Source: Candidatus Pacearchaeota archaeon | GTDB lineage: Archaea > Nanobdellota > Nanobdellia > Pacearchaeales > GW2011-AR1 | Assembly (NCBI GenBank): GCA_016866995.1 | Contig: VGKQ01000002.1 | Location: 221-64,220 of the forward strand | Reading direction: 5' to 3' | DNA length: 64,000 bases | Position numbers and translations under genes: made by a program | Notes under the pieces: model-generated | What the model saw: only the letters and a program-made list of their open reading frames with translations | The model's database searches: none | What the model was told of the DNA's origin: nothing | In this document: in pieces, positions 12,269 through 39,416 of the stretch | How positions within the stretch are numbered: position 1 is the stretch's first letter | How the letters are laid out: each line of letters begins with the position of its first letter

Positions 12269-12601
12269 ATGGGACATGCTGATCCGCTAGCAAATGGATT
12301 AATTAATGTTGTAGAAGGGATTATGAACTTAGGCAGGGGTGCAACAGGTATTTTAGATATGCCAGATGATTATGATACTTCTAGTATGCTTTTGAATTTT
12401 CAAAGAGAGGACAAGATAGTTGGAAGGGAATTGAAAGCATTAAAACATTCAATCCCTATGCCCAAATGCGAAGATACTACCCCCCTGCAGATGAGAATTG
12501 AAATGGCAGTCACAAATGGAGTAGGCTATGATTCTAGAATAGACCCACAGAATCTACATCATAAATTCTGTTATGATCCTGAAGATATTTTCTGTGATTG
12601 A
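12269..12601 (+). CDS. hypothetical protein
   Basis: 110-aa ORF. TATA-like tcttaaaaat about 33 nt upstream. Confidence 0.5.
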   Translation: MGHADPLANGLINVVEGIMNLGRGATGILDMPDDYDTSSMLLNFQREDKIVGRELKALKHSIPMPKCEDTTPLQMRIEMAVTNGVGYDSRIDPQNLHHKFCYDPEDIFCD

Positions 12602-12802
12602 GTTTTGTAAGTTTATTTCTATTGTTTTGGTTGTTTTGGGGTTTGAGTTGAGTTTTGTGTGTGATGAGAGCGAGCCGAACTCATCAGAGTGAGGCGAGCG
12701 TGGGGAGATAGAAATATCTTCAAACTGAATTTTGTTTATCATCCCTGATTCCAGGTAGTTCTTAAAGTTTTTTTCAGCAATTTTTAATCTTTTTTCATCC
12801 AT
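12554..12802 (-). pseudogene. probable truncated HEPN partner of the MNT gene 12784..13398
   Basis: The first ~28 codons (MDEKRLKIAEKNFKNYLESGMINKIQF) look like a genuine N-terminus, overlapping the MNT stop as in the 30.5-kb pair. The frame then reads through the GC-rich repeat at 12669-12705 into the antisense of 12269..12601. Confidence 0.4.
12669..12705 (+). repeat. GC-rich boundary motif AGCGAGCCGAACTCATCAGAGTGAGGCGAGCGTGGGG
   Basis: Related to 25581..25626 and 27322..27349 (inverted) and to shorter GAGG(G)CGAGC copies at 14092, 17071 and 19485. Confidence 0.7.
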
Positions 12803-13398
12803 TTTTGTATTAGATTGTAATAATTTTCTATTCCATACAGGATTATGTTCTCTTTAATTATTTCTTTTGCAACATTGGCTTTTTTTGTTTCAAGCATGGA
12901 TTCAAATTCCTTGACATTAAAATCATGAATTTCGAGATTTAGTGGAAGAAGCCTTAGTTTTGAGACTAATTCTCCTGTTTTAGCATTATTGTCTGAAACT
13001 ATGCATATATCAATATCTGATTTTTCTGTCTTGCTTTTTTTGGCATAGGAGCCGAAAATTAAGACAATCATAAAAGGATAGCCTACTAACTCAATATCTC
13101 TCTTTATCGTCTCTAATTTAGGATTTTTAGCTAAGAAGATTCTGGTTCTTTTGTGCTCCACAGAAAAGATTTCTTCATTGGGAGAAAGATTAATTTCGAT
13201 AAGAGTTGTATTTCCAATCTTGTTTTTGCGCAGGATATCTGGAGAGATATTTTTTATTATATTAAAGGTGTTCTTATAGTCTGCATTTAGACTGCCTGAG
13301 ATTTGCATGATTGATTTTGGGTTCTTGTTTTCAATCAAATATGCCAAAATCTTTTCTTTTAAGCTTAGTGATTTTGGGCTTATGGTATTGATTGCCAT
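12784..13398 (-). CDS. MNT-type nucleotidyltransferase with N-terminal wHTH
   Basis: IFGSYAKKSKTEKSDIDICIV NTase signature. Confidence 0.75.
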   Translation of the reverse strand: MAINTISPKSLSLKEKILAYLIENKNPKSIMQISGSLNADYKNTFNIIKNISPDILRKNKIGNTTLIEINLSPNEEIFSVEHKRTRIFLAKNPKLETIKRDIELVGYPFMIVLIFGSYAKKSKTEKSDIDICIVSDNNAKTGELVSKLRLLPLNLEIHDFNVKEFESMLETKKANVAKEIIKENIILYGIENYYNLIQKWMKKD

Positions 13399-13596
13399 AA
13401 TATTATGGTATATTTTACCATATTTAAGCTTTTTGGTTTTCTGTTTCAGTTATTAATACTTATAATCTTGAGTGGGTTGATGTTTGGAGTTGGTTGTGAG
13501 TTGTTTGCGGGGGCGAATGTGGAGTAGAAAAGAATAAAAAGCCTGATAAACAGCTATTTACGAGGTGATAAACCTCAGTGAATTCTGAGATAAAAA

Positions 13597-14076
13597 ATGA
13601 CAAGTCTAGATGAAGAATTAAGACAAGAGCTTGAAGAAGCAGAAAGACAGCTTAGGAACAGGGAGATTAGTAGTAAAAAGCCCTTAAAATCAGAAGAGAT
13701 TTGGTGGCAAATTCTCAATAATTTTCATTGGCTTTTATCAGATAGATTTTTTTATAATAATGTTAGGTTATACAATCCAGAATTTAAAGATCTAAGCGAC
13801 GAACAAATTGGAGAAATTCCTAGTATAAATGCAAGTAAGGCTAAATATCACTCAACAAAATATCATTCAGTTACACTTAAAGAATTTCGTAGGGATATAA
13901 AAGATGCTCTGAGAGAAGCAGGGGCAGGTGATGCTCTTATGCAAGAATTTGAAGATCCTAGATATAAAGAAAAAATTCGAAGTCTGCAAGTTCCAGATGA
14001 AGTTTATAGAATCTTATACCATGCTTATGTTATCTTAAGAAAAAAAGGGTATAATGGCGCTGAACTTACAAGATGA
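13597..14076 (+). CDS. hypothetical protein
   Basis: 159-aa ORF. Confidence 0.5.
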   Translation: MTSLDEELRQELEEAERQLRNREISSKKPLKSEEIWWQILNNFHWLLSDRFFYNNVRLYNPEFKDLSDEQIGEIPSINASKAKYHSTKYHSVTLKEFRRDIKDALREAGAGDALMQEFEDPRYKEKIRSLQVPDEVYRILYHAYVILRKKGYNGAELTR

Positions 14077-14146
14077 ATGAGTGTTGAACGAGTTGAGGGC
14101 GAGCGTGGATAGAAAGAGATAAATAACCTAGATTAATCATGTTAAC

Positions 14147-14827
14147 ATGGCTGAAGTGTTCAAGTTATCACCCTCAAGCTTGAGCTTGATGGAAGAATGC
14201 GAGAGATGCTTTTGGCTGCATTTTCACGGAAAGAAAAGGCCTGCTGGAATATTTCCAAGCCTTCCAAGTGGAATGGATTTGGTTTTAAAAACCCATTTTG
14301 ATAAGTTTCGAGACAAGAATGAATTGCCTCCTGAAATAAAAAGAGAGAAATTATGTGCTGGGTGCAGGCTGTTTTCTGACAGGAAACTGCTTGATGAGTG
14401 GAGAAATAACAGGAAAGGGATAGAAACTAGAGATAAAGAGGGAAATATCCTGAGAGGAGCTGTTGACAATCTGCTTGTAAGAGGAAAAAAATTAATTGTT
14501 CTTGATTATAAGACAAGAGGGTTTCCGTGCAAGGAAGATACATGCGATTTTTACAAAAATCAGCTTGATATTTATAATTTTCTGCTTAGAAAAATGGGAT
14601 ATGAAACTGAGGATTTTGCTTTCCTGCTTTTTTACTATCCCAAGGAAGTTTTAGAAACAGGGGAAGTTTTGTTTGACACAAAACTTGTGAAAATGCAAGT
14701 TGATGTTGGAAATGCAGAAAGATTGTGGAAAAAAGCTCTTAAGCTTTTGAATTCAGCATGCCCGAAGAAGCATGCTGAAGATGATGAAGAAGCTTGCCCT
14801 TGGTGTAAGATTATAAGTGAGGAATAA
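14147..14827 (+). CDS. Cas4/RecB-like PD-(D/E)XK nuclease with Cys cluster (solo; no CRISPR context)
   Basis: CERCFWL near the N-terminus, GAVDNLL...LIVLDYKTRG, QLDIYNFLL, C-terminal C...ACPWC. Confidence 0.75.
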   Translation: MAEVFKLSPSSLSLMEECERCFWLHFHGKKRPAGIFPSLPSGMDLVLKTHFDKFRDKNELPPEIKREKLCAGCRLFSDRKLLDEWRNNRKGIETRDKEGNILRGAVDNLLVRGKKLIVLDYKTRGFPCKEDTCDFYKNQLDIYNFLLRKMGYETEDFAFLLFYYPKEVLETGEVLFDTKLVKMQVDVGNAERLWKKALKLLNSACPKKHAEDDEEACPWCKIISEE

Positions 14828-14925
14828 GAAAGATTGCAAAACTCAGAACTAAATTAATGTAACATAACAACATTAAGGAAATTATAAATTGTTAAGTTGT
14901 TAGTAAGATAATTAATGAGGAAAAG

Positions 14926-15267
14926 TTAATTAAACCCTCCTGCTCCAAGGGTTATGAGAATTTTTTTGATTTCTTCTATTGTTTTCTGCTGGCTTTTTTT
15001 ATCTGACATTCTTACAAATCGTATGAGTAAATCTGTTAAGCTTGATTCATCAAAAAACTTCAGTTTATGCCCGTCTGTGATGAAGTAGAATCTGAAGGAT
15101 TTATATTTTATTTCTTTTATGACAATTCCTGCTACATTTCCCAGAAGCTTGCCTTTATGAGGATTTGTTTCCAAGGTTTCTATTAAATCAATAATCTTAT
15201 GAGACTCTCCCTTGAATTTCTTTTGTATTTCCTCAAACAAAGAATGAACTATTTCGACTTTGGCCAT
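14926..15267 (-). CDS. RelE/ParE-like toxin
   Basis: NPHKGKLLGNVAGIVIKEIKYKSFRFYFITDGH pattern. Overlaps the upstream small antitoxin gene. Confidence 0.55.
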   Translation of the reverse strand: MAKVEIVHSLFEEIQKKFKGESHKIIDLIETLETNPHKGKLLGNVAGIVIKEIKYKSFRFYFITDGHKLKFFDESSLTDLLIRFVRMSDKKSQQKTIEEIKKILITLGAGGFN

Positions 15268-15461
15268 TTTTTATCCAATTCTTTTCTAGCTTCTTCTATA
15301 GAAATAGTATTTTCTGAAGAAAGTAAAAACTGCCTTAGCTGTTCTTTTACTGCAAATGAGTAGATTCTCTGGATAATTGTGTCATAGCTTTCTCCTTTTA
15401 TTCCGAAAGAGCATATCTTTTCCTTTGTTTCCTTGCTTAGTTGTATTGTTGTTGTTTCCAT
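15249..15461 (-). CDS. putative antitoxin
   Basis: 70 aa, overlapping the toxin gene by 19 nt. Confidence 0.5.
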   Translation of the reverse strand: METTTIQLSKETKEKICSFGIKGESYDTIIQRIYSFAVKEQLRQFLLSSENTISIEEARKELDKKWPKSK

Positions 15462-15651
15462 TTTGTTTTCCTATAGCAGCTATAGTGGCTATAGTTTATA
15501 AGCTTTTCGGTTCTTCTTATTATCTATTATTAATGTTACTTGCATCTTGAGGGCAGAGTTGTTAGGTGAGATGAGAGATGGAAAACAGTAGATACCCCTA
15601 CATTTATTATAAAATAGAAACATTTATAAAGATGTAGGGATAAATGTACAT

Positions 15652-16539
15652 ATGATAATCAGAAAAAAACAGATAGGAAATCGGAATTATTATTACTTAG
15701 AACACAGTTTAAGGGAAAAAAGAAAAGTAAAGAAAAAAGAAGTCTATCTTGGAAAAGAAATTCCCAAAAATATAGAAGAGATAAAGAAAAAATTTGTTTT
15801 TGGTATTTACAAAGAAAAATGGTTTGAAATATTTGAAAATATAAAGAAAAATTATATAAAAGAAGAGAAAGCAACTCCCAAATCCGCGAAAGAAAAAGAA
15901 AAAGAGAGTTTTATGATTAAGTTTACATATAATACTCAAAAAATAGAAGGAAGCAAATTAAGTTTAAAAGATACTGCAAATCTGCTTGAAAAAGGGATAA
16001 GTCCAAAAGATAAACCCTTAAGAGATATAAAAGAAGCTGAAAATCATAAAAAAGTTTTTTATGAAATGCTTGGGTATCAAAAAGATTTGAATATGCAAAT
16101 TGTCCTTTATTGGCATAAAAATCTCTTCAGCGAGACAAAAGAAGATATCGCTGGCAAGATTAGAAATCACCATGTCATGATTTCAAGAAGCAAGTTTATT
16201 CCTCCAACTCCTGCTGAACTGGATTTTTTATTGAAAGAATTTTTTGATTGGTATAAAAAGAATAGGAGCAGAATTAATCCTGTTGAGCTGGCTGCACTGG
16301 TTCATTTAAAATTTGTTTCTATACATCCATTTTCAGATGGGAACGGCAGGATATCAAGATTAATAATGAATTTCGTGCTGAATAAAAGCAAAATGCCTTT
16401 AATTGATATTGATTATATAAACAGAAACAGTTATTATAATGCATTGGAGAGGGCTCAGGTAAAAAAGAATGAACTTATTTTCTTGCAGTGGTTTTTCAGG
16501 AGATATTTCAAAAGTAATAAAAAGTTTTTAGATAAATAG
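15652..16539 (+). CDS. Fic/DOC family protein
   Basis: Canonical Fic motif HPFSDGNGRISRL. Confidence 0.9.
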   Translation: MIIRKKQIGNRNYYYLEHSLREKRKVKKKEVYLGKEIPKNIEEIKKKFVFGIYKEKWFEIFENIKKNYIKEEKATPKSAKEKEKESFMIKFTYNTQKIEGSKLSLKDTANLLEKGISPKDKPLRDIKEAENHKKVFYEMLGYQKDLNMQIVLYWHKNLFSETKEDIAGKIRNHHVMISRSKFIPPTPAELDFLLKEFFDWYKKNRSRINPVELAALVHLKFVSIHPFSDGNGRISRLIMNFVLNKSKMPLIDIDYINRNSYYNALERAQVKKNELIFLQWFFRRYFKSNKKFLDK

Positions 16540-16659
16540 CAAGAAAAAGCAAATATCTAAAATTAATGTTCAATCATACATGTTTTCTGTTGTTTTTTGT
16601 TGTGTTGTGGTGAAGTGTGCGGGAGAAAGATTTAAATATATGCTTACATCTTTATTTTT

Positions 16660-17040
16660 ATGTTTTTTGAGAATGCGAGTATAGAACAAATAAAGGATAA
16701 TGATGATGAGGGTAATATTTATGACGTTACTACTACAACCTATTATAAGGCGGGTTTGGTTTCAAAAATAGGTGGCGTGGGTTTAATAGGTTCTGCTCTT
16801 GCAGAGGTTATTTATCTGATATATACACATAATCTATCTACATCAGTACCTTGGGAAAGGCCCGAAGATTCCGCATTAGTGCATATTACAATGGGAATAT
16901 TACTCGGCGGTTCTTTTTTAACACATATGATAGGCAGGAGCCATGACAAAAAGAAGAATCCTATACGCGTCGAAACAGAACGTAAGAGTACTGGTTATTG
17001 CCGCGCTGGTTCACCTGCAGATCCGCATTTAAATTCCTGA
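16660..17040 (+). CDS. hypothetical membrane protein
   Basis: 126 aa with two hydrophobic segments. Confidence 0.45.
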   Translation: MFFENASIEQIKDNDDEGNIYDVTTTTYYKAGLVSKIGGVGLIGSALAEVIYLIYTHNLSTSVPWERPEDSALVHITMGILLGGSFLTHMIGRSHDKKKNPIRVETERKSTGYCRAGSPADPHLNS

Positions 17041-17105
17041 ATTGCATCCTGAATCAGCATTTTATCCATTCACGAGGCGAGCTTGATGTTGTTCAGTGAT
17101 TTTTA

Positions 17106-17123
17106 TGAGCAAAAATATATAAA
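17106..17123 (+). promoter_or_regulatory. BRE/TATA promoter TGAGCAAAAATATATAAA (copy 1 of 3)
   Basis: Identical 18-mer at 19518 and 20107. ATG 17145 lies about 22 nt downstream of the box. Confidence 0.6.
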
Positions 17124-17144
17124 GATTAATTAAATAGAATATTT

Positions 17145-17522
17145 ATGAGCCAATCTATGACTTTTACTAAAGGGGCAGGATTAGAACATTTATTTGCAAC
17201 AATTTATTCCTTGGAACAAGGAGCAAAAGTAAAGGTAAATGCGAGAGTAGAACTTCCTATTCCAGAAGAAGTTTTGGATTCTAGAAATAGTGACTGCTCG
17301 CAAATGATGTACAAAGGCAGTGTAGAGATTTTAAGAAGAGCCGACTCTAGAGAAGGAATCAGCCAGTATGTTATAAGAGCAAAGACAAAAGATACTGTCT
17401 TTCACTGTGTTGTGAATACTCTTCCCTGGGCATGTGATGGGAAAAGAAGATATGTGCATGCTGAACTTGATGATGACAGGGGGAAAGAAGTTAGAATTTC
17501 TCTCCTAGAAGATTCTGATTAA
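17145..17522 (+). CDS. hypothetical protein
   Basis: 125-aa ORF. Confidence 0.5.
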   Translation: MSQSMTFTKGAGLEHLFATIYSLEQGAKVKVNARVELPIPEEVLDSRNSDCSQMMYKGSVEILRRADSREGISQYVIRAKTKDTVFHCVVNTLPWACDGKRRYVHAELDDDRGKEVRISLLEDSD

Positions 17523-17610
17523 AGTGTGAGTATATAGATAGAAAAGAATATAAACCTTGAATTTATATAAAAATACCCAATAAGCAGGAAGAGTTCTGAT
17601 AGGTTAAAAA

Positions 17611-18465
17611 ATGACATTAAACTATATTAAAGGAGAAAAAGTAAGATTGAGTGATTACTATGATGAAAAATGGTTACAAAAGAAAATTGAAGATGATCCT
17701 AGCCTTTTAGGTTTAGGAGATTTAAGTGTGATAGCAAGAGAAAGAAAACAATCTTCGGGTGGTCGAGTAGATTTCTTACTAAATGATCCTGAAAGAGATA
17801 AAAGATATGAAGTAGAAGTTCAACTTGGTCCAACTGATGAAAGCCATATTATAAGAACAATAGAATATTGGGATATTGAAAGCAGGAGATTTCCTTCAAA
17901 AGAGCATATTGCTGTGATAGTTGCAGAAGATATTACTAATAGATTTTTTAATGTTATCTATCTTATGAATAAATCTATCCCCATAATTGCTATTCAATTA
18001 AATGCTATAAAAATCGACGATAAAATTGTATTAAACTTCACAAAAGTTCTAGATACATATGAGGAACCAGAAGAAGAAGATGCGGGCGGTGAACCTGTTG
18101 ATAGAAATTATTGGGAAAATAAATCAAATCTAATTTCTATAAAAGTGATGGATGAAGTGATTTCTATCACTAAAGAAGCATGTGAAGACCAACGAGTTAC
18201 ATATAATAAGTTTCATGTGGCTTTAGGTACTCAAAAAAGAAATTTTGCTTGGTTTCATCTTAGGAAAAAAGAATATTGTTATATAGAAATAAGAGTTGGA
18301 AATGGTAATATTGACAAAGCAAAAGCAATTCTTGAGGGGGCAGGAATTTCATTTAATAATGCAGAAGATGATTTATTCACATTTCAATTACAGGCTTCTG
18401 TACTTCAAAAAAATAAAGAAGAGTTATGGAAGTTATTTCAAAATGCTTGTCAAGCATATAAATAG
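17611..18465 (+). CDS. protein with N-terminal PD-(D/E)XK-like (NucS/DUF91-like) motif
   Basis: GGRVDFLLNDPERDKRYEVEVQLG, a D...E.E.Q/K-type core. Confidence 0.5.
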   Translation: MTLNYIKGEKVRLSDYYDEKWLQKKIEDDPSLLGLGDLSVIARERKQSSGGRVDFLLNDPERDKRYEVEVQLGPTDESHIIRTIEYWDIESRRFPSKEHIAVIVAEDITNRFFNVIYLMNKSIPIIAIQLNAIKIDDKIVLNFTKVLDTYEEPEEEDAGGEPVDRNYWENKSNLISIKVMDEVISITKEACEDQRVTYNKFHVALGTQKRNFAWFHLRKKEYCYIEIRVGNGNIDKAKAILEGAGISFNNAEDDLFTFQLQASVLQKNKEELWKLFQNACQAYK

Positions 18466-18499
18466 AAAACCATAAATATATACTAAATTTGCTAATTCT

Positions 18500-18988
18500 A
18501 TGTATAAGAAAGATAAACTTACTCTAAAAACAAAAATTTTGAGAGAGATATTTAATATCGCCCCAAAACAATTTAAAGAAATTGACTTGAACAATCATTT
18601 TTTAGCAAAAAAGTTCCATATTTCTGGAAATGAATTGAAAAACAATATAGATTTTCTTGTGGAAACGGGATTGATTCGTCGTTGGCCTGTTGGTAAGGGA
18701 GAAGAAAGAATCCTGGAGTTAATGATTACTGACAAGGGAGTTGATTTTTTAGAAAGAAAAGCGGGTGAAGAAAAACAAGAGAAGTTTAATGAGATTGTTG
18801 CTTTTACTGGAACATTAATTGCTTTAGTTACAATATATGGCTTTATTGTTAATGCAACTAACCTACAAAATTATCCTATAAATTATTGGATTGTGACGGT
18901 TATATTCTCAATTTTAGTTGTATCTTGTTTGGGTCCTTTATCAATGATTATAATTAATTTTTGGAAAAAATTTGTTGAGAGAAGATAA
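18500..18988 (+). CDS. wHTH protein with C-terminal TM helices
   Basis: NIDFLVETGLIRRW... followed by two TM segments. Confidence 0.55.
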   Translation: MYKKDKLTLKTKILREIFNIAPKQFKEIDLNNHFLAKKFHISGNELKNNIDFLVETGLIRRWPVGKGEERILELMITDKGVDFLERKAGEEKQEKFNEIVAFTGTLIALVTIYGFIVNATNLQNYPINYWIVTVIFSILVVSCLGPLSMIIINFWKKFVERR

Positions 18989-19038
18989 TTTGATAAAGTT
19001 CTAACTAAATCAATTATAAAAAATAATTGCGTTAAAAC

Positions 19039-19200
19039 TTATCTTGCTCCTAAATAAATTAGTATAATTCCCACTACCGAAATTCCTATCTTAGCAAAAA
19101 TTCCAATTGGTACAAACCAAGGACCTATTAAACAGACGACACCGGCTAATACGGCCATTGCTCTACCAGTAATACTGCTTGTATGAGTTACATTTGGCAT
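19039..19200 (-). CDS. small membrane protein (53 aa)
   Basis: MPNVTHTSSITGRAMAVLAGVVCLIGPWFVPIGIFAKIGISVVGIILIYLGAR. Below the track cutoff. Confidence 0.3.
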   Translation of the reverse strand: MPNVTHTSSITGRAMAVLAGVVCLIGPWFVPIGIFAKIGISVVGIILIYLGAR

Positions 19201-19517
19201 GTTAATTTCCTCCTTTTAGTTGTTCTTCTATTTTACCGGAGGCTGAGAATTCTTAACAGCGTTCCTCCGAACACCATTTTTCATAAGAAATTTATGTATT
19301 TCAAGTTTAAAAAAATTGTTGTGATAGAATGCAATTTCGCAATTTGTATAAGAAGCGAAGGTTTTTATTTTGTGTTCATAAAAATATAAAAAAATGAAGC
19401 AAAAAACAGATGCAGAAATTCTAAATGATATTGAGAGAAAAATAAAGAGAAGAAGGGCAACAGATAGAGAGATAAGATTATGGCAAGAGGCGAGAGTGGT
19501 TTTTAGATAGATTTTTG

Positions 19518-19535
19518 TGAGCAAAAATATATAAA
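19518..19535 (+). promoter_or_regulatory. BRE/TATA promoter TGAGCAAAAATATATAAA (copy 2 of 3)
   Basis: 25-nt match with 17099-17123. ATG 19557 lies downstream. Confidence 0.6.
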
Positions 19536-19556
19536 TAAAGTCTGATTCTTGGGAGA

Positions 19557-20123
19557 ATGGCGAGGGAGCATGATGCTAAATCCTATCTTTCTGAAAGTTT
19601 TTTAGGTAAATGTTTTGAAAATTCAAGTTGTTTTAAATTAATGATAGCAGATAAAGGACATCAGCTAGATGAAGAAGGATTAAGAGATTTTTTAGATGAA
19701 TTTGAAGATAAAGAGGATGTAATAAACCTACTTAAAGAATTGAATAAATCTAAATTACTTCTTCCAGATTTCATATTAAAAGATGATGAGGGAGTATTCT
19801 TTTCTGAAATAAAAACAAAATCTTCAGAAAATAAAGTAAAATTGTCCGATATACCTCAAAAATATGCAATCAAAAAACTTGCTGCTGAAGGTTTTGAGGT
19901 ATGGGTAATCATTGATAGAACGGATTGGGGTGAAAAATCTGAACAGGAAATAATAGAGATTTTAGAAGAGTCTGGAAAATTTGACAAAAAAGTATATCCA
20001 GAAGAAGACAAAGTGAATGTTAATATAAAAATGGATATTCTTAATGAGAGAAAAGTTGAAGATAATATCTATATGGCTGATGTCGAAATTACTGATGTGG
20101 AAAAACTGAGCAAAAATATATAA
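19557..20123 (+). CDS. PD-(D/E)XK nuclease-like protein (possible restriction endonuclease)
   Basis: LLLPDFILKDDEGVFFSEIKTK, a PD...(S)EIK core. Confidence 0.5.
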   Translation: MAREHDAKSYLSESFLGKCFENSSCFKLMIADKGHQLDEEGLRDFLDEFEDKEDVINLLKELNKSKLLLPDFILKDDEGVFFSEIKTKSSENKVKLSDIPQKYAIKKLAAEGFEVWVIIDRTDWGEKSEQEIIEILEESGKFDKKVYPEEDKVNVNIKMDILNERKVEDNIYMADVEITDVEKLSKNI

Positions 20124-20124
20124 A
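20107..20124 (+). promoter_or_regulatory. BRE/TATA promoter TGAGCAAAAATATATAAA (copy 3 of 3)
   Basis: Overlaps the stop codon of 19557..20123. ATG 20146 lies downstream. Confidence 0.55.
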
Positions 20125-20145
20125 CCAACCCTATATGGCTTTTTT

Positions 20146-21477
20146 ATGAAGAATTTTGAATTTGGAACAGGAATAATTGACAAAGTAATCAAAGAGATTA
20201 ATAAAGCTAAGAAGTATATAAGAATTGTAGTCTTTCAGATTCATAATAAAGAAATCATTAATAAACTGAAGGAAAAAGTAAAGATGGGTGTTTCTATTGA
20301 ATTAATCACTTTGCCTTATGAGAGCATTCAAGAAAATGTAAGAGCAGAAGTTACAAAAGAATTAAAAGAATTAGAGAAGGCTGGTGGAAAAATCTATTTA
20401 TGTAATTGGAATTTGGGAGATACGAGCCATACAAAAACTGTTCCAGGCCCTTGGCATAATTTACATTCAAAGTTTATGGTAACTGACAAATCTGCAATAG
20501 TTTTATCTGCGAACCTTATTGGAAATGATGATATTGATGCAATATTAATAAATGATGATAGAGCAGAGATTAAAGACTTCAATAAGAAATTTGAATCTGT
20601 AATGGAGGATTATATGCAAGATAAAATATTTAAAAAAATAAAAGAAAGTATAGAAAGTGAAGAGGATTACAGTGAGATAATTACTCCTCCGAAACATTTG
20701 TCTAGAAATCAAAAATCAATACTTCATTATCCTATAAAATTATGCCCAAATATGGAGGATATAGAAGAAAAACTATATGTTTTTCCATTGGATTGTAAAG
20801 GGAGAGATTTTGTTAAGAAGATTATTGAGGACTCTTCACAATTTGTTTACATATCCACAGAAAGATTTACTGATAAAGAATTATTTTATTTCTTACAGAA
20901 AGAGGGACTAAAAAATAAAGAAATAAAAATATTGACTAAATTTCAAAGCCAAGATTATCAATATGAGATAATCCAATTTGCGAAAAATTGCCTGACTACT
21001 GGAATAGAATTAAAAGATAATAAAATGGTGCATGCAAAACTGATAGTCACTGACAAATTAGTTGCTCTTGGTTCTATTAACTTAAATCAGATGAATTTAG
21101 GATTTGAACCTAAGAAAGGATTTTGGAGATCAAATACAGAAGTTATGCTAATTTGTAAAGATAAAGAAATTATTGATAAAGCAAAAAATCTATTTTTAGG
21201 AATTTTTAGTAATTCTGACAATGTTATTAAAAATCTTGTAAAAAAAGAGGTTGATAATTTTAAGAAAATTGCAAAAGAGGTTTTAAATATGCCTTTATAT
21301 AATAGTGGAGGATATTTAGCAGAAAAATTTTTGAGAGAGGAGATAGTAAACAGAAAGAAATATTTAGAAATTATTAAAGAAGCAGCAAAATTAGCGAAGG
21401 CAAAAAATCTTAAAAAAATAAAAGAAGAATTAATAAAAGAGGTTGAAGATAACTCAGAAAAACAAACAAAATTATGA
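20146..21477 (+). CDS. phospholipase D superfamily protein with two HKD motifs (nuclease/phosphodiesterase)
   Basis: HSKFMVTDKSAIVLSANL and HAKLIVTDKLVALGSINL. Confidence 0.85.
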   Translation: MKNFEFGTGIIDKVIKEINKAKKYIRIVVFQIHNKEIINKLKEKVKMGVSIELITLPYESIQENVRAEVTKELKELEKAGGKIYLCNWNLGDTSHTKTVPGPWHNLHSKFMVTDKSAIVLSANLIGNDDIDAILINDDRAEIKDFNKKFESVMEDYMQDKIFKKIKESIESEEDYSEIITPPKHLSRNQKSILHYPIKLCPNMEDIEEKLYVFPLDCKGRDFVKKIIEDSSQFVYISTERFTDKELFYFLQKEGLKNKEIKILTKFQSQDYQYEIIQFAKNCLTTGIELKDNKMVHAKLIVTDKLVALGSINLNQMNLGFEPKKGFWRSNTEVMLICKDKEIIDKAKNLFLGIFSNSDNVIKNLVKKEVDNFKKIAKEVLNMPLYNSGGYLAEKFLREEIVNRKKYLEIIKEAAKLAKAKNLKKIKEELIKEVEDNSEKQTKL

Positions 21478-22338
21478 AAATTCTTTTATATTTTTATCTG
21501 GAAATTCCTGCTTTAATCTTTCTTCAGTCATCTTAATATATTCTTTATTGATTTCAAATCCTAAAAAATTTCTATTTAATTTTTTAGCGGCAATTGCTGT
21601 CGTTCCTCCGCCCATAAAAGGATCGAGCACAACATCTCCCTCGTTAGTTAACCAATCTATAAAAAATTCTGGTAGTTGTGGATGAAATGGGGCGGGATGT
21701 TTTAATCCTCTTAAAGCACTTCCAGTATCAAATCTAAAGACAGTTGTGGGTTTTGCACCTTTTGGATGAGGTTTGCTGCTTCCTCTTTGGGATAATTTTG
21801 TTTCTCCATTAGGCAAGATTATGTCATTTCCATGAACTTTATTTTTAAATCGCTTTAAAGAGACTTCCTTGTATGGAACTCTAATTCTATCTGTAAATGT
21901 TTTAAATTTCTTGGAATCTTTTACAAAATGAAAAATATATTCTATTCTATCATTTAATCTCTTATCTCCTGTCATGGGGAGAGCTGATTTTTTAAACCAT
22001 ATATACCTATCAAATAGTTTTAGTCCTGTTTCTTTTGTTATTCTATAAACTAATTCAAAAACATAAGTGCTTCTCTCTCCATTATTTGATTTATCATTAA
22101 TATTTAAGATAAAGCTTCCTGAATCTTTTAGAAATCTCTTAGCTTCTTCAAATAATGTTAAAAACCACTCTACATATTGTTCAGGAGTTAAAATTTTTAC
22201 TTCATTTCCGTAACTTACTGTATCTGCATAAGGCGGGGAGGTAACAATCAAATCTACTGAATTATCTGGCAATTCCTTTGCTAATTTCATTGTATCTCCT
22301 AAATGAGTTTTATTTAACTCAAATTTTCCTATTTTCAT
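21472..22338 (-). CDS. beta-class N6-adenine or N4-cytosine DNA methyltransferase
   Basis: Motif IV LIVTSPPYAD precedes motif I VLDPFMGGGTTAIAA. Confidence 0.9.
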   Translation of the reverse strand: MKIGKFELNKTHLGDTMKLAKELPDNSVDLIVTSPPYADTVSYGNEVKILTPEQYVEWFLTLFEEAKRFLKDSGSFILNINDKSNNGERSTYVFELVYRITKETGLKLFDRYIWFKKSALPMTGDKRLNDRIEYIFHFVKDSKKFKTFTDRIRVPYKEVSLKRFKNKVHGNDIILPNGETKLSQRGSSKPHPKGAKPTTVFRFDTGSALRGLKHPAPFHPQLPEFFIDWLTNEGDVVLDPFMGGGTTAIAAKKLNRNFLGFEINKEYIKMTEERLKQEFPDKNIKEFS

Positions 22339-22801
22339 CTTTTTTCATCTCCTCCTTTAATCTCCTAGATTTTAGTATGCTGTTTAGGTTTTTTAAAAAT
22401 TGTTGTGATGCATCTAATGGTATAAAAATGCTGCCTTTCATTATCCATTTATCTCCTTCTTTTATTTTCTGCTGCAATAATAACGACTTTCCGTAATTAT
22501 TCTCAACTAAATCAATGTAAAATCTTTTCTTGCCAACATCAAAATAGTTGAAATCTAAATGATGATATCTATGATTTGGATAGTATATTCTAGCGCTTCC
22601 TACTTGTTTCATATAAATATTATTCTCAAATAATAAAACTTGAAGATGCTTTTCTACTGCTTTCCTAGAAATCCCTGTTTGCTGTTCTATATCTTGGGTT
22701 GTCAAACCTCGAGGGTGAGCTTTGAGATGAGTATGTATTTTTTCATGAGTTTCACTCTCTCTATTAAATGGCGAACCATTTATCTCTCCCTCTTTTTTCA
22801 T
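22319..22801 (-). CDS. wHTH protein upstream of and overlapping the methyltransferase (controller or specificity-like)
   Basis: GLTTQDIEQQTGISRKAVEKHLQVL. 20-nt overlap with the MTase gene. Confidence 0.6.
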   Translation of the reverse strand: MKKEGEINGSPFNRESETHEKIHTHLKAHPRGLTTQDIEQQTGISRKAVEKHLQVLLFENNIYMKQVGSARIYYPNHRYHHLDFNYFDVGKKRFYIDLVENNYGKSLLLQQKIKEGDKWIMKGSIFIPLDASQQFLKNLNSILKSRRLKEEMKKDENRKI

Positions 22802-22930
22802 GTTTTATCTAGTAAAACATGGTATTTAAACTTGTGTTGTAACTTCCAAGTGCTTAGTACCAAGCAATAGGTTTAAATAGATAAATGCATTTTACAAAAT
22901 AGCTTTTTCAAGTGAAAAAGCAGGTGAAAT

Positions 22931-23092
22931 ATGTATCAATATTTATTAACATTGCCACAAAAATTAATGACTATGTTGTTTAGATATTGGTATGTTGTTT
23001 TGGTTTTGTTAATTTTAGGATTTGGCATTCCACAAATAATATATTATTTGCCTACAATAATTAAATATGGAAAATTTTTTGGATTAATATAA
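22931..23092 (+). CDS. tiny membrane protein (53 aa), first gene of the 4-gene operon
   Basis: MYQYLLTLPQKLMTMLFRYWYVVLVLLILGFGIPQIIYYLPTIIKYGKFFGLI. The stop lies 1 nt before the ATG at 23094. Below the track cutoff. Confidence 0.4.
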   Translation: MYQYLLTLPQKLMTMLFRYWYVVLVLLILGFGIPQIIYYLPTIIKYGKFFGLI

Positions 23093-23093
23093 A

Positions 23094-23381
23094 ATGGGCT
23101 TAGCTGAATTTTTTATTTTTTTAGTAATCTTTGGGATTGTAGGCTATGCTATAAATAAAATCTGGGATTTTAATCCATATGAATACTGGGAAAAGTTTGG
23201 GGTTATAAGTATTATTATCTCGTTAGTTATTGCTTATCTTCCAACAATTTTCAATCCTCAGGATGTTGTTAATAATGTTGATAGGATAATGAATTGGTTT
23301 GTTGCGATTTTGCCCGGCACGATCATAGGAGATTTGGCAGGGCAAATTATCTCAAAAATTACCGGGGGAGGTAGAAGATGA
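23094..23381 (+). CDS. small membrane protein (3 TM)
   Basis: 95 aa. 4-nt overlap with the next gene. Confidence 0.55.
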   Translation: MGLAEFFIFLVIFGIVGYAINKIWDFNPYEYWEKFGVISIIISLVIAYLPTIFNPQDVVNNVDRIMNWFVAILPGTIIGDLAGQIISKITGGGRR

Positions 23382-24673
23382 TATTTATGGGTGCTACATA
23401 CCAGAGCGATTCCCCTTACTTTGAAGATAAATTAATTAAAGCAAGAAATAAACTAAAAGAGTTTCCTACAATAGCAAGCGTGGTCGATAATTTTAATTTG
23501 GCAAATAGAGAGAACCATACAGAGAATATTATATTAAATTTATTGAGTGCAGCAGTTTCAGATGCTTTTTTAGAAAATAAACCAAATGAACGATGTAATC
23601 AAACACTAAAACTAATTGAGCTCTCCTTGAAAGAATTATTGGATAAATTGTCAAGAAGTAAGAAAAATAATCTTATTGTTAAATTAAAATCATTTGGAGA
23701 TAGTCATCGTGATACAATAAATGAAATTGATTTTTTGATAGAATTGAAACAAAATTCTAATGTATCTGACATCGAATATGAAAATGAAACTTTGGGAAAC
23801 CATGATTTCAATGTTTATATTGGTGGAGAAGAATTTAACATAGAACAAACTTGTTTGGGAAGAGGGAAAATACAAAAGATGGTAGAGCGGGCTTTTAATA
23901 TCGCTTCAAAAGAAATTATAGAAAGAATCCCAAAAAGGATATTCCTAAAGATAGATGTAGACACGGATAGAATTTTGAAAGAAAGGGATAATAGTTTTCA
24001 TGAAATAAAAACACTTTTGATGAAAGACTATGATAATTTAGAAAAAATGTTATTGATAGATTTAAATGGTGGTTGTAGAATTGATAATAATCTGGGATCT
24101 TCCAATCAATCTTTATACGAAATAAAAGATTTATATGATGATTATGATGAATTTGGTCAAAGACTTAAAAAATTATTAGATAGCCGTGAAGGCGTTGATT
24201 ACTTAAAGAGTAAGAAAGTTTTTGAATTAACAAAATGTTCTATAACTCATTTCATTATCGGACCAGGCAAATTTGGCAGTGTCAGTATTCACTCACAATG
24301 TATATGGCCTTCAAGAGCAGAATCATTAAGAAAAGGCTCATTAATAAATCAATTAAAGAGAAAGATAAAAGAAAAAATTGAGGGGAGACAATTAGAGGGA
24401 AAGACAAATCCTATTATCGCTGTTAGATTTGAAGATTTTATATTTATGAATTATAGTTCGGAAGATGATGTTTGGTGGGAAGAGAATTTTAACGAGCTAA
24501 AGAACATTATTGAGGGTGTTTTTAGAGATATCAATAACAAAGAGATTTTAGGGGTCTTGTTGTATGAGAACACAATTAAAAAATCAAGATTTGTAAAAAA
24601 TCCAAATATCAAAGTTAGAGAGAATATAATAGATAAAATTGGCTTATTAAAAAATGAATCAACAACAACTTAA
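23378..24673 (+). CDS. uncharacterised 431-aa protein with a weak Pol-beta NTase-like signature
   Basis: KSFGDSHRDTINEIDFLIEL (G[DS]-x-ExD spacing as in hG[GS]x9-13[DE]h[DE]h), followed by HDFNVYIGGEEFNIEQ. The assignment is speculative. Confidence 0.6.
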   Translation: MIFMGATYQSDSPYFEDKLIKARNKLKEFPTIASVVDNFNLANRENHTENIILNLLSAAVSDAFLENKPNERCNQTLKLIELSLKELLDKLSRSKKNNLIVKLKSFGDSHRDTINEIDFLIELKQNSNVSDIEYENETLGNHDFNVYIGGEEFNIEQTCLGRGKIQKMVERAFNIASKEIIERIPKRIFLKIDVDTDRILKERDNSFHEIKTLLMKDYDNLEKMLLIDLNGGCRIDNNLGSSNQSLYEIKDLYDDYDEFGQRLKKLLDSREGVDYLKSKKVFELTKCSITHFIIGPGKFGSVSIHSQCIWPSRAESLRKGSLINQLKRKIKEKIEGRQLEGKTNPIIAVRFEDFIFMNYSSEDDVWWEENFNELKNIIEGVFRDINNKEILGVLLYENTIKKSRFVKNPNIKVRENIIDKIGLLKNESTTT

Positions 24674-25613
24674 AGAAAATGCTGAACAGATTAAGATATG
24701 TAAGAAGTGGCTAGGCACTGCTAAGTCAGATTTTGAGGCTGCAAAAAATCTTTACGAACATGAAAATTATCCTCAATCAGTCTTTAGCTTACAACAATCT
24801 ATTGAAAAAACCATAAAAGCATATGGTATTTTTATGGGTGTAAAGGAAAGTGATTTAAAAAATAAATTTAGACATGATACTTTAAAAATTTATGAGCATC
24901 ATTTAACTGGGTTTTTAGAAAAATCAAAGAGTTTTAGCGAGACACTAAAGGCACATCCTGAACTTAAGAGTATTCCAATGCTAAACGAGTTAGATTATGA
25001 TGATTTAGCAATAGAGATGAGTGATGCAAAAGATGAATTTCAGAACATAAAATCTAGTGCGGAGGATATGACAAAAACTACCCGAAAGATTGAAAGTTGC
25101 ATTAACAAAGCAATTAAGCTTTTCGAAAATGAAAAGATTTCTATTAAAGGATTATCCAAAATTAAACTGTCTGACAGGCAATTTAATGAAATAAAAAGAT
25201 TTATGTTCGAAAACCTTAATGAAATTTCTAAGCTAAAAAAACAAGAACTTCCAGAATTGAAAGAGATCGAGAAATTAACTCCGAGCTACTTTCAAAGGCT
25301 TTTTAGTGAGACCTTTAGCTATTTAATCAGGGCATTGTCGGTTTATAGTGCATTGCTTTACTTGAATCTTATTGTTTATAATAAAGTTTCTTCCACAAGA
25401 TATCCTGAGAACAAAACCCCTCAACAGATATATAACATCAATTCTCCAATTATCAAGAGATTTAGGGATATCCAGAAGATTCATCAAGATTGCTTCTTGA
25501 AAATTGAAGATATTCTTAATGAACAAGAAAAATTAACTAAAAAATATCAAAATGAAACAACCAATCCAACAAACTCACAAGCTCGCCCTCCTACTAAGTC
25601 GGGCTCGCTGTGA
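24654..25613 (+). CDS. long HEPN-domain protein with a large insertion
   Basis: N-terminal WLGTAKSDFEAAKNLYEHENYPQSVFSLQQSIEKTIKAYG, FRHD, and a distal STRYPE. 20-nt overlap with the upstream gene. Confidence 0.6.
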   Translation: MNQQQLKENAEQIKICKKWLGTAKSDFEAAKNLYEHENYPQSVFSLQQSIEKTIKAYGIFMGVKESDLKNKFRHDTLKIYEHHLTGFLEKSKSFSETLKAHPELKSIPMLNELDYDDLAIEMSDAKDEFQNIKSSAEDMTKTTRKIESCINKAIKLFENEKISIKGLSKIKLSDRQFNEIKRFMFENLNEISKLKKQELPELKEIEKLTPSYFQRLFSETFSYLIRALSVYSALLYLNLIVYNKVSSTRYPENKTPQQIYNINSPIIKRFRDIQKIHQDCFLKIEDILNEQEKLTKKYQNETTNPTNSQARPPTKSGSL

Positions 25614-25626
25614 TGCCGGGCTCGCT
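25581..25626 (-). repeat. GC-rich boundary motif (inverted orientation), GCGAGCCCG ×2 plus GGAGGGCGAGC
   Basis: gctcgccctcctactaagtcgggctcgct...gggctcgct. About 30 nt are shared with 27322..27349. Confidence 0.75.
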
Positions 25627-25629
25627 AAA

Positions 25630-25995
25630 TTACTTAATCCTCCTATCAGGATATATGTATCTGGAGTATTTTTCTTTTGCAAGATCATCCCTAAGTGAAA
25701 TATATCCTCTTGGACTCTGTCTACCATCACCATCTCTTATAAGCGCAAATCCTCCATAATCTAAAGTTAATTCTCCTGCTGTTTCTAAAGAGCTAGGAAC
25801 AACTCCTCTTAAAACAAGAAAAAATCTAAAACGTTTACCTTGTTTTCTTTCATGAAAAGTGTCATACCACCAAGGAGAAGAAGATAGTGCCATCCCAGTT
25901 AACTCACATATCTTTGCATCATCTTCTGGCTTTTCACAAACAATGCAAATTTCTCTGTGCTCTCTTCTATCAGCTCCCCTATACTCCTTAGACAT
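25630..25995 (-). CDS. hypothetical protein
   Basis: 121-aa ORF with R/G/W/H-rich composition unlike host genes. Confidence 0.55.
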   Translation of the reverse strand: MSKEYRGADRREHREICIVCEKPEDDAKICELTGMALSSSPWWYDTFHERKQGKRFRFFLVLRGVVPSSLETAGELTLDYGGFALIRDGDGRQSPRGYISLRDDLAKEKYSRYIYPDRRIK

Positions 25996-26226
25996 AAAAG
26001 TTTTTTGAATAACTAGTTTTTAATAATTATTGTTCTGAGATATATGCAATGAGATAAGCTGGAAAAATCTATAAAGCAATAAGATTTAATTATGGTGAGA
26101 GATAAGGATGAATTGATAGAGGGATAGATTTATAAACATCATATTATAATATATTATAATGTCAGAAAAGTAAACTACCCCCTCAGGGTGTAGATAGTTG
26201 TGAACAACTATCCTTTTCTGAACCAA

Positions 26227-26278
26227 AGAAAATCTTATAAGGATTTTCTGGGCCCCAAAATTCCATAAAAGAATTTTG
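26227..26278 (+). repeat. double-hairpin miniature element (copy A)
   Basis: AGAAAATC-ttataag-GATTTTCT ggg cccc CAAAATTC-cataaaa-GAATTTTG. Homologous to 53660..53713. Confidence 0.75.
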
Positions 26279-26320
26279 CGGCATCCAAAAGTTCAAAACA
26301 AAACACAAAAACTTTTTGAT

Positions 26321-27070
26321 ATGGAAACTATAGTGAAACAGGCGAGGGAAGTGGGAACATCTGCAGGAGTTCTTCTTCCCAGAAAATGGCTGAACAAGCA
26401 GGTAGTTGTGACTCTTTTTAATCCCTCAGGAGAAAAAATTCTTCAGGACATTATTCCGTGCTTGTTTAAGCATAATTTAAATGAAGACATCAGGGGAATT
26501 TATTTGTTCGGCAGCTATGCAAGAGGGGATTTTGATTTTAACAGCGACATAGATATTCTGATTCTAACTGAAAAAACAGACAAGCTGATTAATTGCAATA
26601 ATTACGAAATTCTCATGGTTTCAGAAGACTCTTTTTCAAAAAACCTGCCAAATAATCTTAATTATTTAAGCCTTTTAAAAGAAATAAAGATAATTTTTAA
26701 TAAGGAATTAATTGAAAAATACAGAAATAAAAAATATAAATTTAATGTTAAGAAATATCTGCCTGAAATTGAGAGAATTGCTGGAATAAACAGAGATACA
26801 GTAAAAACCTGCCAGGAGAATAATATGAATGTTCCTGACGGCATTGTTTATTCAATTGTTTTAAGATTAAGAGAATTATACATGATAAAATGCCTTGTTT
26901 CCGGCAAAAACTACTATAAAAAAGATTTCCTGAAACTGATTGAAGAAAAAATTTATTCAGCTTATCTCAGAATAAAAAGAAATGAAAAAGAATTAAACAA
27001 TCTTTCTCCAGATGAGTTGCTGAAAATACTGGAATTATCTGAAAAATGGCTAAAAGAGCTAAAAGAATAG
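26321..27070 (+). CDS. AbrB/SpoVT-like domain fused to an MNT-type nucleotidyltransferase
   Basis: METIVKQAREVGTSAGVLLPRKWL... and LFGSYARGDFDFNSDIDILIL. Start trimmed to the ATG at 26321. Confidence 0.75.
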   Translation: METIVKQAREVGTSAGVLLPRKWLNKQVVVTLFNPSGEKILQDIIPCLFKHNLNEDIRGIYLFGSYARGDFDFNSDIDILILTEKTDKLINCNNYEILMVSEDSFSKNLPNNLNYLSLLKEIKIIFNKELIEKYRNKKYKFNVKKYLPEIERIAGINRDTVKTCQENNMNVPDGIVYSIVLRLRELYMIKCLVSGKNYYKKDFLKLIEEKIYSAYLRIKRNEKELNNLSPDELLKILELSEKWLKELKE

Positions 27071-27309
27071 AAAAAGGAATTGAAAGCCTGAAAAAAGAGA
27101 TTGAAGAGCATCTTGATAAAATTGAAAAAGACATTCTTGAAAAAAATATTGACAGAGGGAGATATCACATAAAAGAAGTTGATAAAAGCCTGCTAAAAGC
27201 ACTGGAACTCAAAATTAAGATTCTTGGAATTGAAAATGATAATTCTGTCTCAGTTTACAGGGAAAGATTAGAAAAATTAAGAAAGAGTCTTGGATTAAGT
27301 GAGTTTTGA
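27046..27309 (+). CDS. helical/coiled-coil small protein overlapping the MNT gene end
   Basis: 87 aa, K/E-rich, 25-nt overlap. Confidence 0.45.
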   Translation: MAKRAKRIEKGIESLKKEIEEHLDKIEKDILEKNIDRGRYHIKEVDKSLLKALELKIKILGIENDNSVSVYRERLEKLRKSLGLSEF

Positions 27310-27321
27310 TAAATCCTCAAA

Positions 27322-27349
27322 GCTCGCCCTCCTCTAAGTCGGGCTCGTT
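27322..27349 (-). repeat. GC-rich boundary motif (inverted orientation)
   Basis: gctcgccctcctctaagtcgggctcgtt. Confidence 0.75.
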
Positions 27350-39367: not shown

Positions 39368-39416
39368 ATAATAAGAATATGGAGATATTTCCTTTTTAAG
39401 TATTTGCTTCCATAAT

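Follow-up and report, generated by a model that had tools for sequence, protein, structure and literature searches.

An oriented GC-rich element at gene junctions of a hypervariable accessory-gene array in Pacearchaeota

Why does a short GC-rich word recur, in fixed orientation, between small unrelated genes in AT-rich archaeal DNA? We addressed this question in a stretch of 64,000 nucleotides from Candidatus Pacearchaeota archaeon (assembly GCA_016866995.1, contig VGKQ01000002.1, positions 221 to 64,220), hereafter called the window. An initial annotation had noted copies of GAGG(G)CGAGC at the 3′ side of orphan genes and had suggested three possible roles: recombination, 3′ processing, or binding of protein or RNA. 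The motif proves to be one part, the core (about GAGGGCGAGC-KTG..TAG), of a larger element with two forms, and this lineage-wide, oriented junction element is real and falls outside every known family that we tested. We give about an even chance to the reading that it is recombination-active, marking cassette junctions in a hypervariable accessory-gene array that would be integron-like in its logic.

All of the copies listed in the initial annotation were found at the coordinates given there. GGCGAGC occurs in the array at 12693, 14098 and 17076 on the plus strand and at 25587 and 27328 on the minus strand, with GGCGAGA at 19489 (plus) and the variant GGCGAAT at 13512 (plus); GAGGCGAGG is at 48887 (minus). 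The window is about 32% GC, and word counts were compared with those in dinucleotide-preserving shuffles of it. GGCGAGC was observed 7 times versus 1.00 ± 0.95 expected, a count that none of 100 shuffles reached. The corresponding values were 5 versus 0.36 for GAGGCGAG, 4 versus 0.35 for GAGGGCGAGCKTG with up to two mismatches, and 3 versus 0.15 for CGAGCCCGAC with up to one mismatch. A 22-nt position-weight matrix (PWM) derived from the motif copies gave eight strong matches (score of 18 or higher), all within 12688–27333, with the left six on the plus strand and the right two on the minus strand. Seven of the eight lie in spacers or at gene ends of an array of toxin-antitoxin and defence genes.

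Chance recurrence of a GC-rich word is an explanation to which three exact-word matches in coding sequence (48887, 57354 and 61815) lend some colour, and these three do look like chance matches and were treated as such. The extra GGCGAGC copies at 57354 and 61815 lie inside genes and have low PWM scores. The copy at 48881–48893, which had been counted as a member of the family, scored below 9, is coding sequence and was not picked up at the equivalent place in the related locus L252 by a crude pattern scan; it is probably a chance match outside the family. For the copies in the array, chance is already refuted by the shuffle statistics, the clustering, the similarity that extends past the core and the recurrence in related genomes, and its probability is negligible.

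The short form consists, in order, of a GT-rich tract, a G-box (GAGGGCGAGCGTGG and variants), (A)TAGAAAGAG and TATA, with the next gene directly downstream; its members in the window are at 12201, 13512, 14098, 16612, 17076 and 19489. In the window and in four relatives described below it is situated 48–106 nt upstream of a co-oriented start codon. The G-box is 3–8 nt from a TAGAAAG box resembling the B recognition element (BRE), and the spacing between core and TATA varies from about 10 to 35 nt. The long form contains one or two GCGAGCCCGRC half-repeats, a loop and GGAGGGCGAGC-TTGTKAG, with a 3′ tail of TTGTGAG or TTTGAGG (12663–12712, 25570–25627 and 27316–27350). It was found in convergent spacers, abutting the 3′ end of an opposite-strand operon encoding a nucleotidyltransferase (NTase) and a HEPN protein. 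The half-repeats upstream of the three long copies are as first described, as are the TTGAGGG words at 12201, 14091, 15546 and, on the minus strand, 9472. Because copy 1 and one copy in the related locus L255 combine half-repeats with a promoter tail, the short and long forms constitute one family. The sites are as follows.

12201–12237, plus strand: degenerate short form with a GT-rich tract, G-box GTTGAGGGGGGTGAGG, CAGAAA and TATA (TATAATAA); upstream of gene 12269–12601.
12663–12712, plus strand: long copy 1; hairpin GATGAG-AGCGAGCCGAA-CTCATC, then GAGTGAGGCGAGCGTGGGGAGATAGA; on the right it ends at 12712/12713, the point at which a truncated HEPN gene breaks off.
13505–13540, plus strand: short-form variant GCGGGGGCGAATGTGGAG-TAGAAAAG-AATAAAAAG in a divergent spacer, upstream of gene 13597–14076; PWM score 19.0.
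14091–14126, plus strand: short form TTGAGGGCGAGCGTGG-ATAGAAAGAG-ATAAATAA, occupying most of the 70-nt spacer between genes 13597–14076 and 14147–14827; PWM score 22.1.
15546–15560, plus strand: weak, degenerate G-box CTTGAGGGCAGAGTTG, assigned with low confidence, placed after a GT-rich tract in the divergent spacer that precedes the Fic gene 15652–16539.
16590–16640, plus strand: degenerate short form with a GT-rich tract, GTGAAGTGTGCGGGAGAAAG and TATA (ATTTAAATATA); upstream of gene 16660–17040.
17071–17123, plus strand: short form CACGAGGCGAGCTTGATG... with promoter block GATTTTTATGAGCAAAAATATATAAA; upstream of gene 17145–17522; PWM score 23.3.
19484–19535, plus strand: short form CAAGAGGCGAGAGTGG... 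with promoter block (GATTTTTGTGAGCAAAAATATATAAA); upstream of gene 19557–20123; PWM score 18.0. The site lies in the last codons of a 41-aa open reading frame (ORF; 19385–19510) that is also called in L001 and L235.
22709–22730, plus strand: possible extra copy TCGAGGGTGAGCTTTGAGATGA, uncertain, antisense in the 5′ part of the helix-turn-helix (HTH) gene 22319–22801; PWM score 18.6.
25570–25627, minus strand: long copy 6, AGCGAGCCCGGC-ATCAC-AGCGAGCCCGAC-TTAGTA-GGAGGGCGAGC-TTGTGAG, then a GT-rich tract; PWM score 31.2. It begins 3 nt past the stop codon of the orphan gene 25630–25995 and overlaps the last codons of the opposite-strand HEPN gene 24654–25613.
27316–27350, minus strand: long copy 7, AACGAGCCCGAC-TTAGA-GGAGGGCGAGC-TTTGAGG, between the 3′ ends of gene 27415–28056 (minus) and the NTase/87-aa operon 26321–27309 (plus); PWM score 29.3.
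48881–48893, minus strand: GAGGCGAGG inside the 3′ end of gene 48870–49259; PWM score below 9; probably a chance match.

The motif lies downstream of a co-oriented gene in 7 of 8 cases, a count that stands, with the divergent spacer at 13512 as the exception. Position at gene junctions and orientation were upheld. The proposed rule that each copy follows its own gene's orientation is better replaced by one orientation per array block: sites within a block share orientation regardless of how the genes between them are turned. All sites from 12201 to 19489 are on the plus strand, including those around the inverted NTase operon 12784–13398 and the inverted pair 14926–15461, and those at 25587 and 27328 are on the minus strand. 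As to the description of the motif as a 3′-side feature, copies do lie downstream of co-oriented genes, but the short form, as divergent spacers illustrate, is more accurately described as fused 5′ of the next promoter. The array of small genes spans about 8.5–31 kb of the window and is flanked by the Lhr helicase gene on the left and by xerA, ribosomal-protein genes and MacB genes on the right. Its products include HicA, two MNT-type nucleotidyltransferases with HEPN partners, PD-(D/E)XK, Fic and PLD nuclease proteins, an N4/N6 methylase, NUDIX, TrmB and ParE-like proteins, and many orphans.

A scan of metagenomes for the long form recovered 103 loci. Nearly all were chance matches in GC-rich ABC-ATPase genes; five were AT-rich, and four of these share their sample series with the contigs of the window itself. 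Matches from relaxed scans were likewise mostly ABC-ATPase genes, with other chance matches in GC-rich bacterial genomes, and exact long-pattern scans of viral and genome collections found nothing. These minor-strain variants were compared with the window by BLAST and junction alignments. In L043, window positions 26910–27350 are followed by 590 bp of new DNA carrying a 130-aa gene and then by window positions 25617–25848, the departure from the window being at about 27347–27350. In L097, positions 24185–27329 are followed by new DNA with a short-form site and then by positions 19397–19597. In L024 and L086, independent assemblies that are 99.5% identical, the end of the gene for a 121-aa protein (to 25614) adjoins a TrmB-like gene, and a 70-nt long-form unit that is 94% identical to that of L043 lies between entirely different flanks. 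Window and variants diverge at the element (25614–25617 and 27329), and GAGCTTGTTAGTTT is the only sequence common to the L043, L024 and L097 junctions. The junctions share 14 nt, and a chimeric join would need longer shared words. Where the 87-aa gene ends, each of the three strains carries a site, and they differ beyond it. Two features bear directly on these comparisons.

25630–26057, minus strand: orphan 121-aa gene cassette with its promoter, 98–99% identical in three 3′ contexts (window, L024 and L043).
12554–12802, minus strand: HEPN remnant, partner of the NTase 12784–13398; past the homologous start, the ORF is read-through across the element and the GT-rich tract.

L252 shares the inverted NTase-HEPN operon found at 12784–13398 and encodes in it an intact HEPN protein of 174 aa. 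Homology of the window's HEPN gene to that of L252 covers the first 30 or so codons and stops at 12713, which is the end of copy 1 (...GGGGAGATAGA/AATATCTTC, with the slash at the break). Contig ends also gather at the element: 6 of 23 true main-population ends lie within 70 nt of a site versus about 1.3 expected, namely 25617, 25646, 27284, 27313 and 27395 near sites 6 and 7, and 16594, where contig L003 ends. Two independent assemblies end at 26057, which is likely the 5′ boundary of a mobile 121-aa cassette. The encoded 121-aa protein had no homologue but itself among 5.8 billion proteins, and when three cassette proteins of the window were looked up as exact matches, only the arrangement of the window itself came back. 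Comparison of strains had been named in the initial annotation as the way to learn whether breakpoints coincide with the motif; variants do break at it, and the HEPN gene is truncated at its edge.

The element is not confined to one species. XerA homologues across Pacearchaeota and Nanoarchaeota are 64–88% identical, and through them we retrieved six related loci (L252, L255, L256, L257, L258 and L259), with XerA 70–80% identical to the window's in L252, L255, L256/L257 and L259. Five of the six loci (L252, L255, L256/L257 and L259) contain small, mostly unannotated genes 3–8 kb upstream of xerA, and each of these five arrays carries the element in its spacers, with cassette genes mostly different from those of the window. 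Examples are GGCGAGCGGGGATAGAAAGAGATTTAAAC in L252, which begins at the stop codon of the upstream gene, GTGAGGGAGTGGGGGGATAGAAAGAGTTTTATAG in L259 and GGCGACGACTGGGGGTAGAAAAGTTTAAATA in L257. In each of the four relatives the sites are directed away from xerA, as they are in the part of the window closest to that gene; in L252, L257 and L259 all are on the minus strand. L256/L257 have a long-form site (GAGCGAGCCC-ATCA-GGGCGAGC-TTTGAG) at the junction with the xerA 3′ end, and the stretch from xerA to the S9-L13 operon differs in every species. L258 has neither array nor element, and in none of the loci compared did housekeeping spacers show a copy. A 66-aa gene in L252 and a 67-aa gene in the window (32882–33085) are orthologous; because only the L252 orthologue has the element upstream, the element goes with array position and not with the gene.

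The close association of the short form with promoters suggests another explanation, that the element is a promoter-upstream cis-regulatory box (a transcription factor site or an extended promoter) and that the rearrangements are a by-product of homologous recombination between promoter modules. The short G-box distance to the BRE-like (A)TAGAAAGAG and TATA in the window and four relatives is what such a box would show, as is its presence in divergent spacers without a gene end (13512 and 15546). Several HTH, TrmB and MarR-type proteins are encoded in the array, and a 26-nt promoter block is common to two unrelated genes and to another species. However, the long copies (25570–25627, 27316–27350, and those of L043, L024, L034, L117 and L256/L257) have no downstream co-oriented gene or TATA and yet are the best conserved, as the near-identity of the 70-nt unit between different flanks indicates. 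Copy 1 and the copy at L255 5697 retain a promoter tail with no gene to drive, the spacing between core and TATA is variable, and one pair of orthologous genes differs between species in having the element. The placement upstream of TATA expected of a promoter-linked site was seen for the short form and not for the long form, and the element was not retained with the orthologue. We regard the regulatory explanation, the main rival, as possible but somewhat unlikely. The element resembles archaeal BRE/TATA promoters with upstream activator or repressor sites in that the short form lies directly upstream of a BRE-like purine box and TATA; it differs from them in that the long form lacks promoter and gene, the element is not kept with an orthologue, and it coincides with rearrangement junctions.

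Three observations concern promoters and gene starts in these loci. The promoter block TGAGCAAAAATATATAAA is identical at 17098–17123 and 19510–19535, upstream of two unrelated window genes, and it occurs again before a third gene at L255 3735–3775, in a locus whose XerA is only 76% identical to the window's. Orphan promoter tails (12700–12720 in the window and 797–830 in L252), each comprising a G-box, TAGAAA and a TATA-like stretch, are aimed into the 3′ end of the inverted NTase-HEPN operon and could give rise to antisense transcripts running across the toxin-antitoxin genes. A conserved word, (G)CAGGAAGAGTTCTGATAGG, is found a few bases upstream of the start codons of unrelated and housekeeping genes in several Pacearchaeota loci (window 17585–17606; L252 3150–3234 and 11125–11202; L257 1708–1770 and 10319–10350; L255 6670–6700) and may be a 5′-leader or translation signal.

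Half-repeat and core can be drawn together as an imperfectly paired hairpin, AGC-GA-GCCC-(GA-C loop G-GA)-GGGC-GA-GCT, in which the mismatches are always tandem G·A. This brings in the possibility of a selfish or structural repeat (REP/PATE/MITE-like) that would spread by itself through intergenic DNA, its single-stranded DNA (ssDNA) hairpin being recognised by a transposase encoded elsewhere, and would tend to settle at gene ends with no cassette exchange. Consistent with such a repeat are the discrete 70-nt unit with defined ends between unrelated flanks, the core AGC-GA-GCCC/GGGC-GA-GC with its conserved stem and 4–12-nt loop in several species, and a copy in L117 that is 75 nt from a DDE transposase gene. 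The junctions are about 8–11 nt 3′ of the hairpin foot, a geometry like that of IS200/IS605 right ends. But the unit alone shows no presence/absence polymorphism (the 87-aa gene end has the site in 3 of 3 strains), neither terminal inverted repeats nor target duplications are present, and a scan of about 70 window proteins gave no Y1/HUH transposase. The promoter fusion and the restriction to arrays would be left unexplained as well, and we judge this explanation improbable. REP/BIME elements and the IS200/IS605-derived PATEs are similar in being extragenic, GC-rich, imperfect, multi-copy hairpins that often lie between convergent genes; here no Y1 transposase was seen, and the element is array-restricted, promoter-fused and without simple insertion polymorphism. 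The L117 copy was also considered as the terminal repeat of the neighbouring insertion sequence, for which no matching inverted repeat was found.

Hairpins with the same GAGCCCGAC-loop-GGAGGGCGAGC layout occur outside the archaea, in an Alloprevotella sp. metagenome-assembled genome (MAG; L160, L166, L171, L182 and L207), an Oscillospiraceae MAG (L119, L174 and L177), Magasanikbacteria (L161) and a viral contig (L240). They sit in longer GC-rich multi-copy repeats, often at contig ends, and TGTTAG follows the hairpin in Alloprevotella just as it does in the archaeal copies. They had no Rfam match, and their neighbour genes were uninformative. The resemblance in sequence may reflect homology to the archaeal element or coincidence.

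Folding gave a divided picture. ssDNA folds of seven sites were no better than those of shuffles (z from −1.5 to +0.25). At the RNA level the site 6 region reached −36 kcal/mol (z = −4.2) and copy 1 had z = −2.8; elsewhere folding was weak (L024, z = −0.7; site 7, z = +0.16; short-form spacers, z about 0). The two stronger folds, and the location of most copies downstream of a co-oriented gene beside T-rich tracts, would suit a transcribed 3′-UTR (untranslated region) element such as a stabilising or terminator hairpin, a processing signal or a small RNA. Nevertheless, the other copies fold no better than shuffles, no C/D boxes are present, and the element also occurs in divergent spacers. The short-form G-box lies between T-runs and the next TATA, a stretch unlikely to be much transcribed. 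Rfam 15 at gathering thresholds found three tRNAs and a 5S rRNA elsewhere in the window and one tRNA in L034, none at the sites, and with E values up to 1 across 12–28 kb only a spurious mir-72 match was returned. Such an RNA element is very unlikely, and the 3′ processing signal initially suggested gains little support from the inconsistent folding and the lack of an Rfam match. Several narrower candidates were rejected. Translations across the element were low-complexity read-through, which ruled out the coding remnant of a conserved peptide. Inspection of the long copies showed that boxes or bulges required for a C/D-box small RNA, a K-turn or a hammerhead were missing. No tRNA-like sequence was found at any site by ARAGORN or Rfam, as an att repeat derived from a tRNA fragment would require; the L034 copy is about 25 nt from a sequence resembling a tRNA 3′ half.

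One gene in the window is a candidate for an array recombinase.

34503–35339, plus strand: xerA tyrosine recombinase gene, 7 kb from the nearest site.

Its product passed the XerA equivalog model NF040815 (267.7 bits versus a cut-off of 220) and failed the integron-integrase models (TIGR02249, 209.3 versus 265, in two stretches; PRK15417, 142 versus 435). No other tyrosine recombinase was present among the scanned window ORFs. In Xer/dif systems, dif has 11-bp arms and a fixed 6-bp spacer, and predicted sites are unique per genome examined (PMC2958812). The likeness here is that the sole recombinase in the window is of the Xer family and that the long form has two partly symmetric arms of about 12 nt. 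The differences are a centre of 4–12 nt (12 including flanks), several GC-rich, direct-oriented copies per 64 kb, and junctions that appear to fall outside the arms. A dif site proper was rejected: between the arms AGCGAGCCCGAC and GGAGGGCGAGCT symmetry holds at 8 of 12 positions, with a centre of 4, 5 or 6 nt. Xer-dependent mobile modules are known, namely IMEXs (integrative mobile elements exploiting Xer) and the pdif modules of Acinetobacter plasmids. Arrays of this kind go unmentioned in a review of archaeal tyrosine recombinases, and a literature search on Pacearchaeota islands found nothing relevant.

The arrays resemble chromosomal integrons and CALINs (attC clusters lacking integrase) in several respects. 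The cassettes are small, mostly of a single gene, and split by a repeated co-oriented site, here at a spacing of 0.45–1.4 kb; inverted toxin-antitoxin cassettes lie within the array. Toxin-antitoxin genes, methylases, acetyltransferases and orphans are abundant, and in their functions the cassettes agree with those described from archaeal integrons (Ghaly et al. 2022, PMC9668308). Related genomes with syntenic flanks differ in content, and gain, loss and re-ordering of cassettes have breakpoints at sites (4 of 5 window-versus-variant breakpoints). A gene for a tyrosine recombinase of the Xer/IntI clade is nearby and is transcribed away from the array. In contrast to integrons, the Pacearchaeota sites are only about 20–55 nt long and lack attC architecture (RYYYAAC/GTTRRRY boxes and a stable 55–140-nt imperfect palindrome), each cassette carries its own BRE/TATA promoter, brought by the short form, and the recombinase is a housekeeping XerA orthologue, below the IntI cut-off and 3–8 kb away. 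The earlier judgement that the motif is not attC-like in sequence was confirmed by ssDNA folding and by a search for complementary R″/R′ pairs 52–157 nt apart across 8–31 kb on both strands, which returned none against a shuffle mean of 0.4.

A model of recombination at the element can be proposed from these features. Each array unit would comprise a promoter (BRE-like TAGAAAG plus TATA), a gene, a T/G-rich tract and a G-box core, so that the core of one unit would abut the promoter of the next. The long form would add one or two GCGAGCCCGRC half-repeats, which would form with the core a hairpin or inverted repeat of imperfect symmetry (AGC-GA-GCCC...GGGC-GA-GCT). Exchange in or beside the core, around GAGC/KTG, would then gain, lose, invert and re-order cassettes. 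In this model exchange would be site-specific instead of relying on short homology, with the crossover near this step and a possible role for the nearby XerA. A fuller version, in which Pacearchaeota possess an integron analogue without IntI or attC, with promoter-bearing single-gene cassettes captured and shuffled at GAGC/KTG in a chromosomal array near xerA, half-repeats as accessory or hairpin arms, and XerA or another partner as recombinase, is unlikely.

Several findings weigh against recombination activity at the element. One of the five window-versus-variant breakpoints (window 19397 in L097) is away from any site. The junctions do not fall at one nucleotide (they lie at the core's left edge, after TAG, and in the first half-repeat), and homology-driven or imprecise events account for this scatter no worse than site-specific ones do. 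Ascertainment bias also enters, since the motif itself was the query that recovered the variant contigs; these are short metagenome contigs, with L043 and L097 each a single observation. No array-dedicated recombinase was found; XerA is an orthologue of housekeeping type, conserved across the whole lineage, and L258 has xerA without an array beside it. The hairpin lacks covariation support: its arms enclose a loop of variable length (4–12 nt), and none of the stems shows covariation. Finally, with the short form so tightly fused to BRE and TATA, a purely transcriptional role for it is plausible.

Other features of the array and of the window were recorded alongside the element. PADLOC gave only a weak PDC-S11 match in the array, for 17611–18465, and two 284-aa proteins that were compared proved to be unrelated. 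The 121-aa gene and the NTase gene 26321–27070 diverge from a 325-nt spacer that contains, at 26175–26215, a perfect palindrome (ATAGTTGTTCACAACTAT) and a hairpin (CTACACCCTGAGGGGGTAG), and this is likely an operator region. Other GC-rich palindromes in AT-rich spacers (7393–7423, 8385–8422 and 48795–48835, for example GAGCGCGAAGCGCGAACGCGCTC and GCCAGGGGGAAGGCCTGGC) share no sequence relationship with the motif and may be terminator hairpins or small RNAs. A 217-nt direct repeat with 82% identity (47757–47973 and 49446–49662) lies in paralogous MacB/FtsX permease genes that flank 48870–49259.

Several tRNA regions were also unusual. A tRNA gene at 53543–53640 was found by Rfam and not by ARAGORN, and an inverted near-copy of its region (53540–53641, plus strand) lies 14 kb away at 39242–39370 on the minus strand, next to the Lrp/AsnC gene 39417–40385, with arms that are 97% and 82% complementary. 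The near-copy could be a second intron-bearing tRNA gene, or the two could be the ends of an inverted or integrated segment holding the ribosomal-protein block. A 64-nt AT-rich unit is perfectly duplicated in tandem at 54523–54650, just upstream of tRNA-Arg (54886–54962). The tRNA at 59764–59846, to which ARAGORN assigned a four-base anticodon (tcca) and which Rfam scored as a normal tRNA (58 bits), probably contains an intron.

DPANN archaea have tiny genomes and depend on hosts, and the turnover of their defence and toxin-antitoxin genes is poorly understood. Archaeal integrons have so far been found with bacterial IntI/attC models, and an array built on a different site would therefore be invisible to them. 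If the element is a true recombination site, it would represent a second, independently evolved platform for cassette capture and would provide a sequence handle with which to find such arrays in metagenomes; a possible second role of XerA would also become directly testable. Even if it is only a promoter box, it would still be a hotspot of rearrangement between strains and a regulatory signature that the accessory genome carries throughout the lineage.

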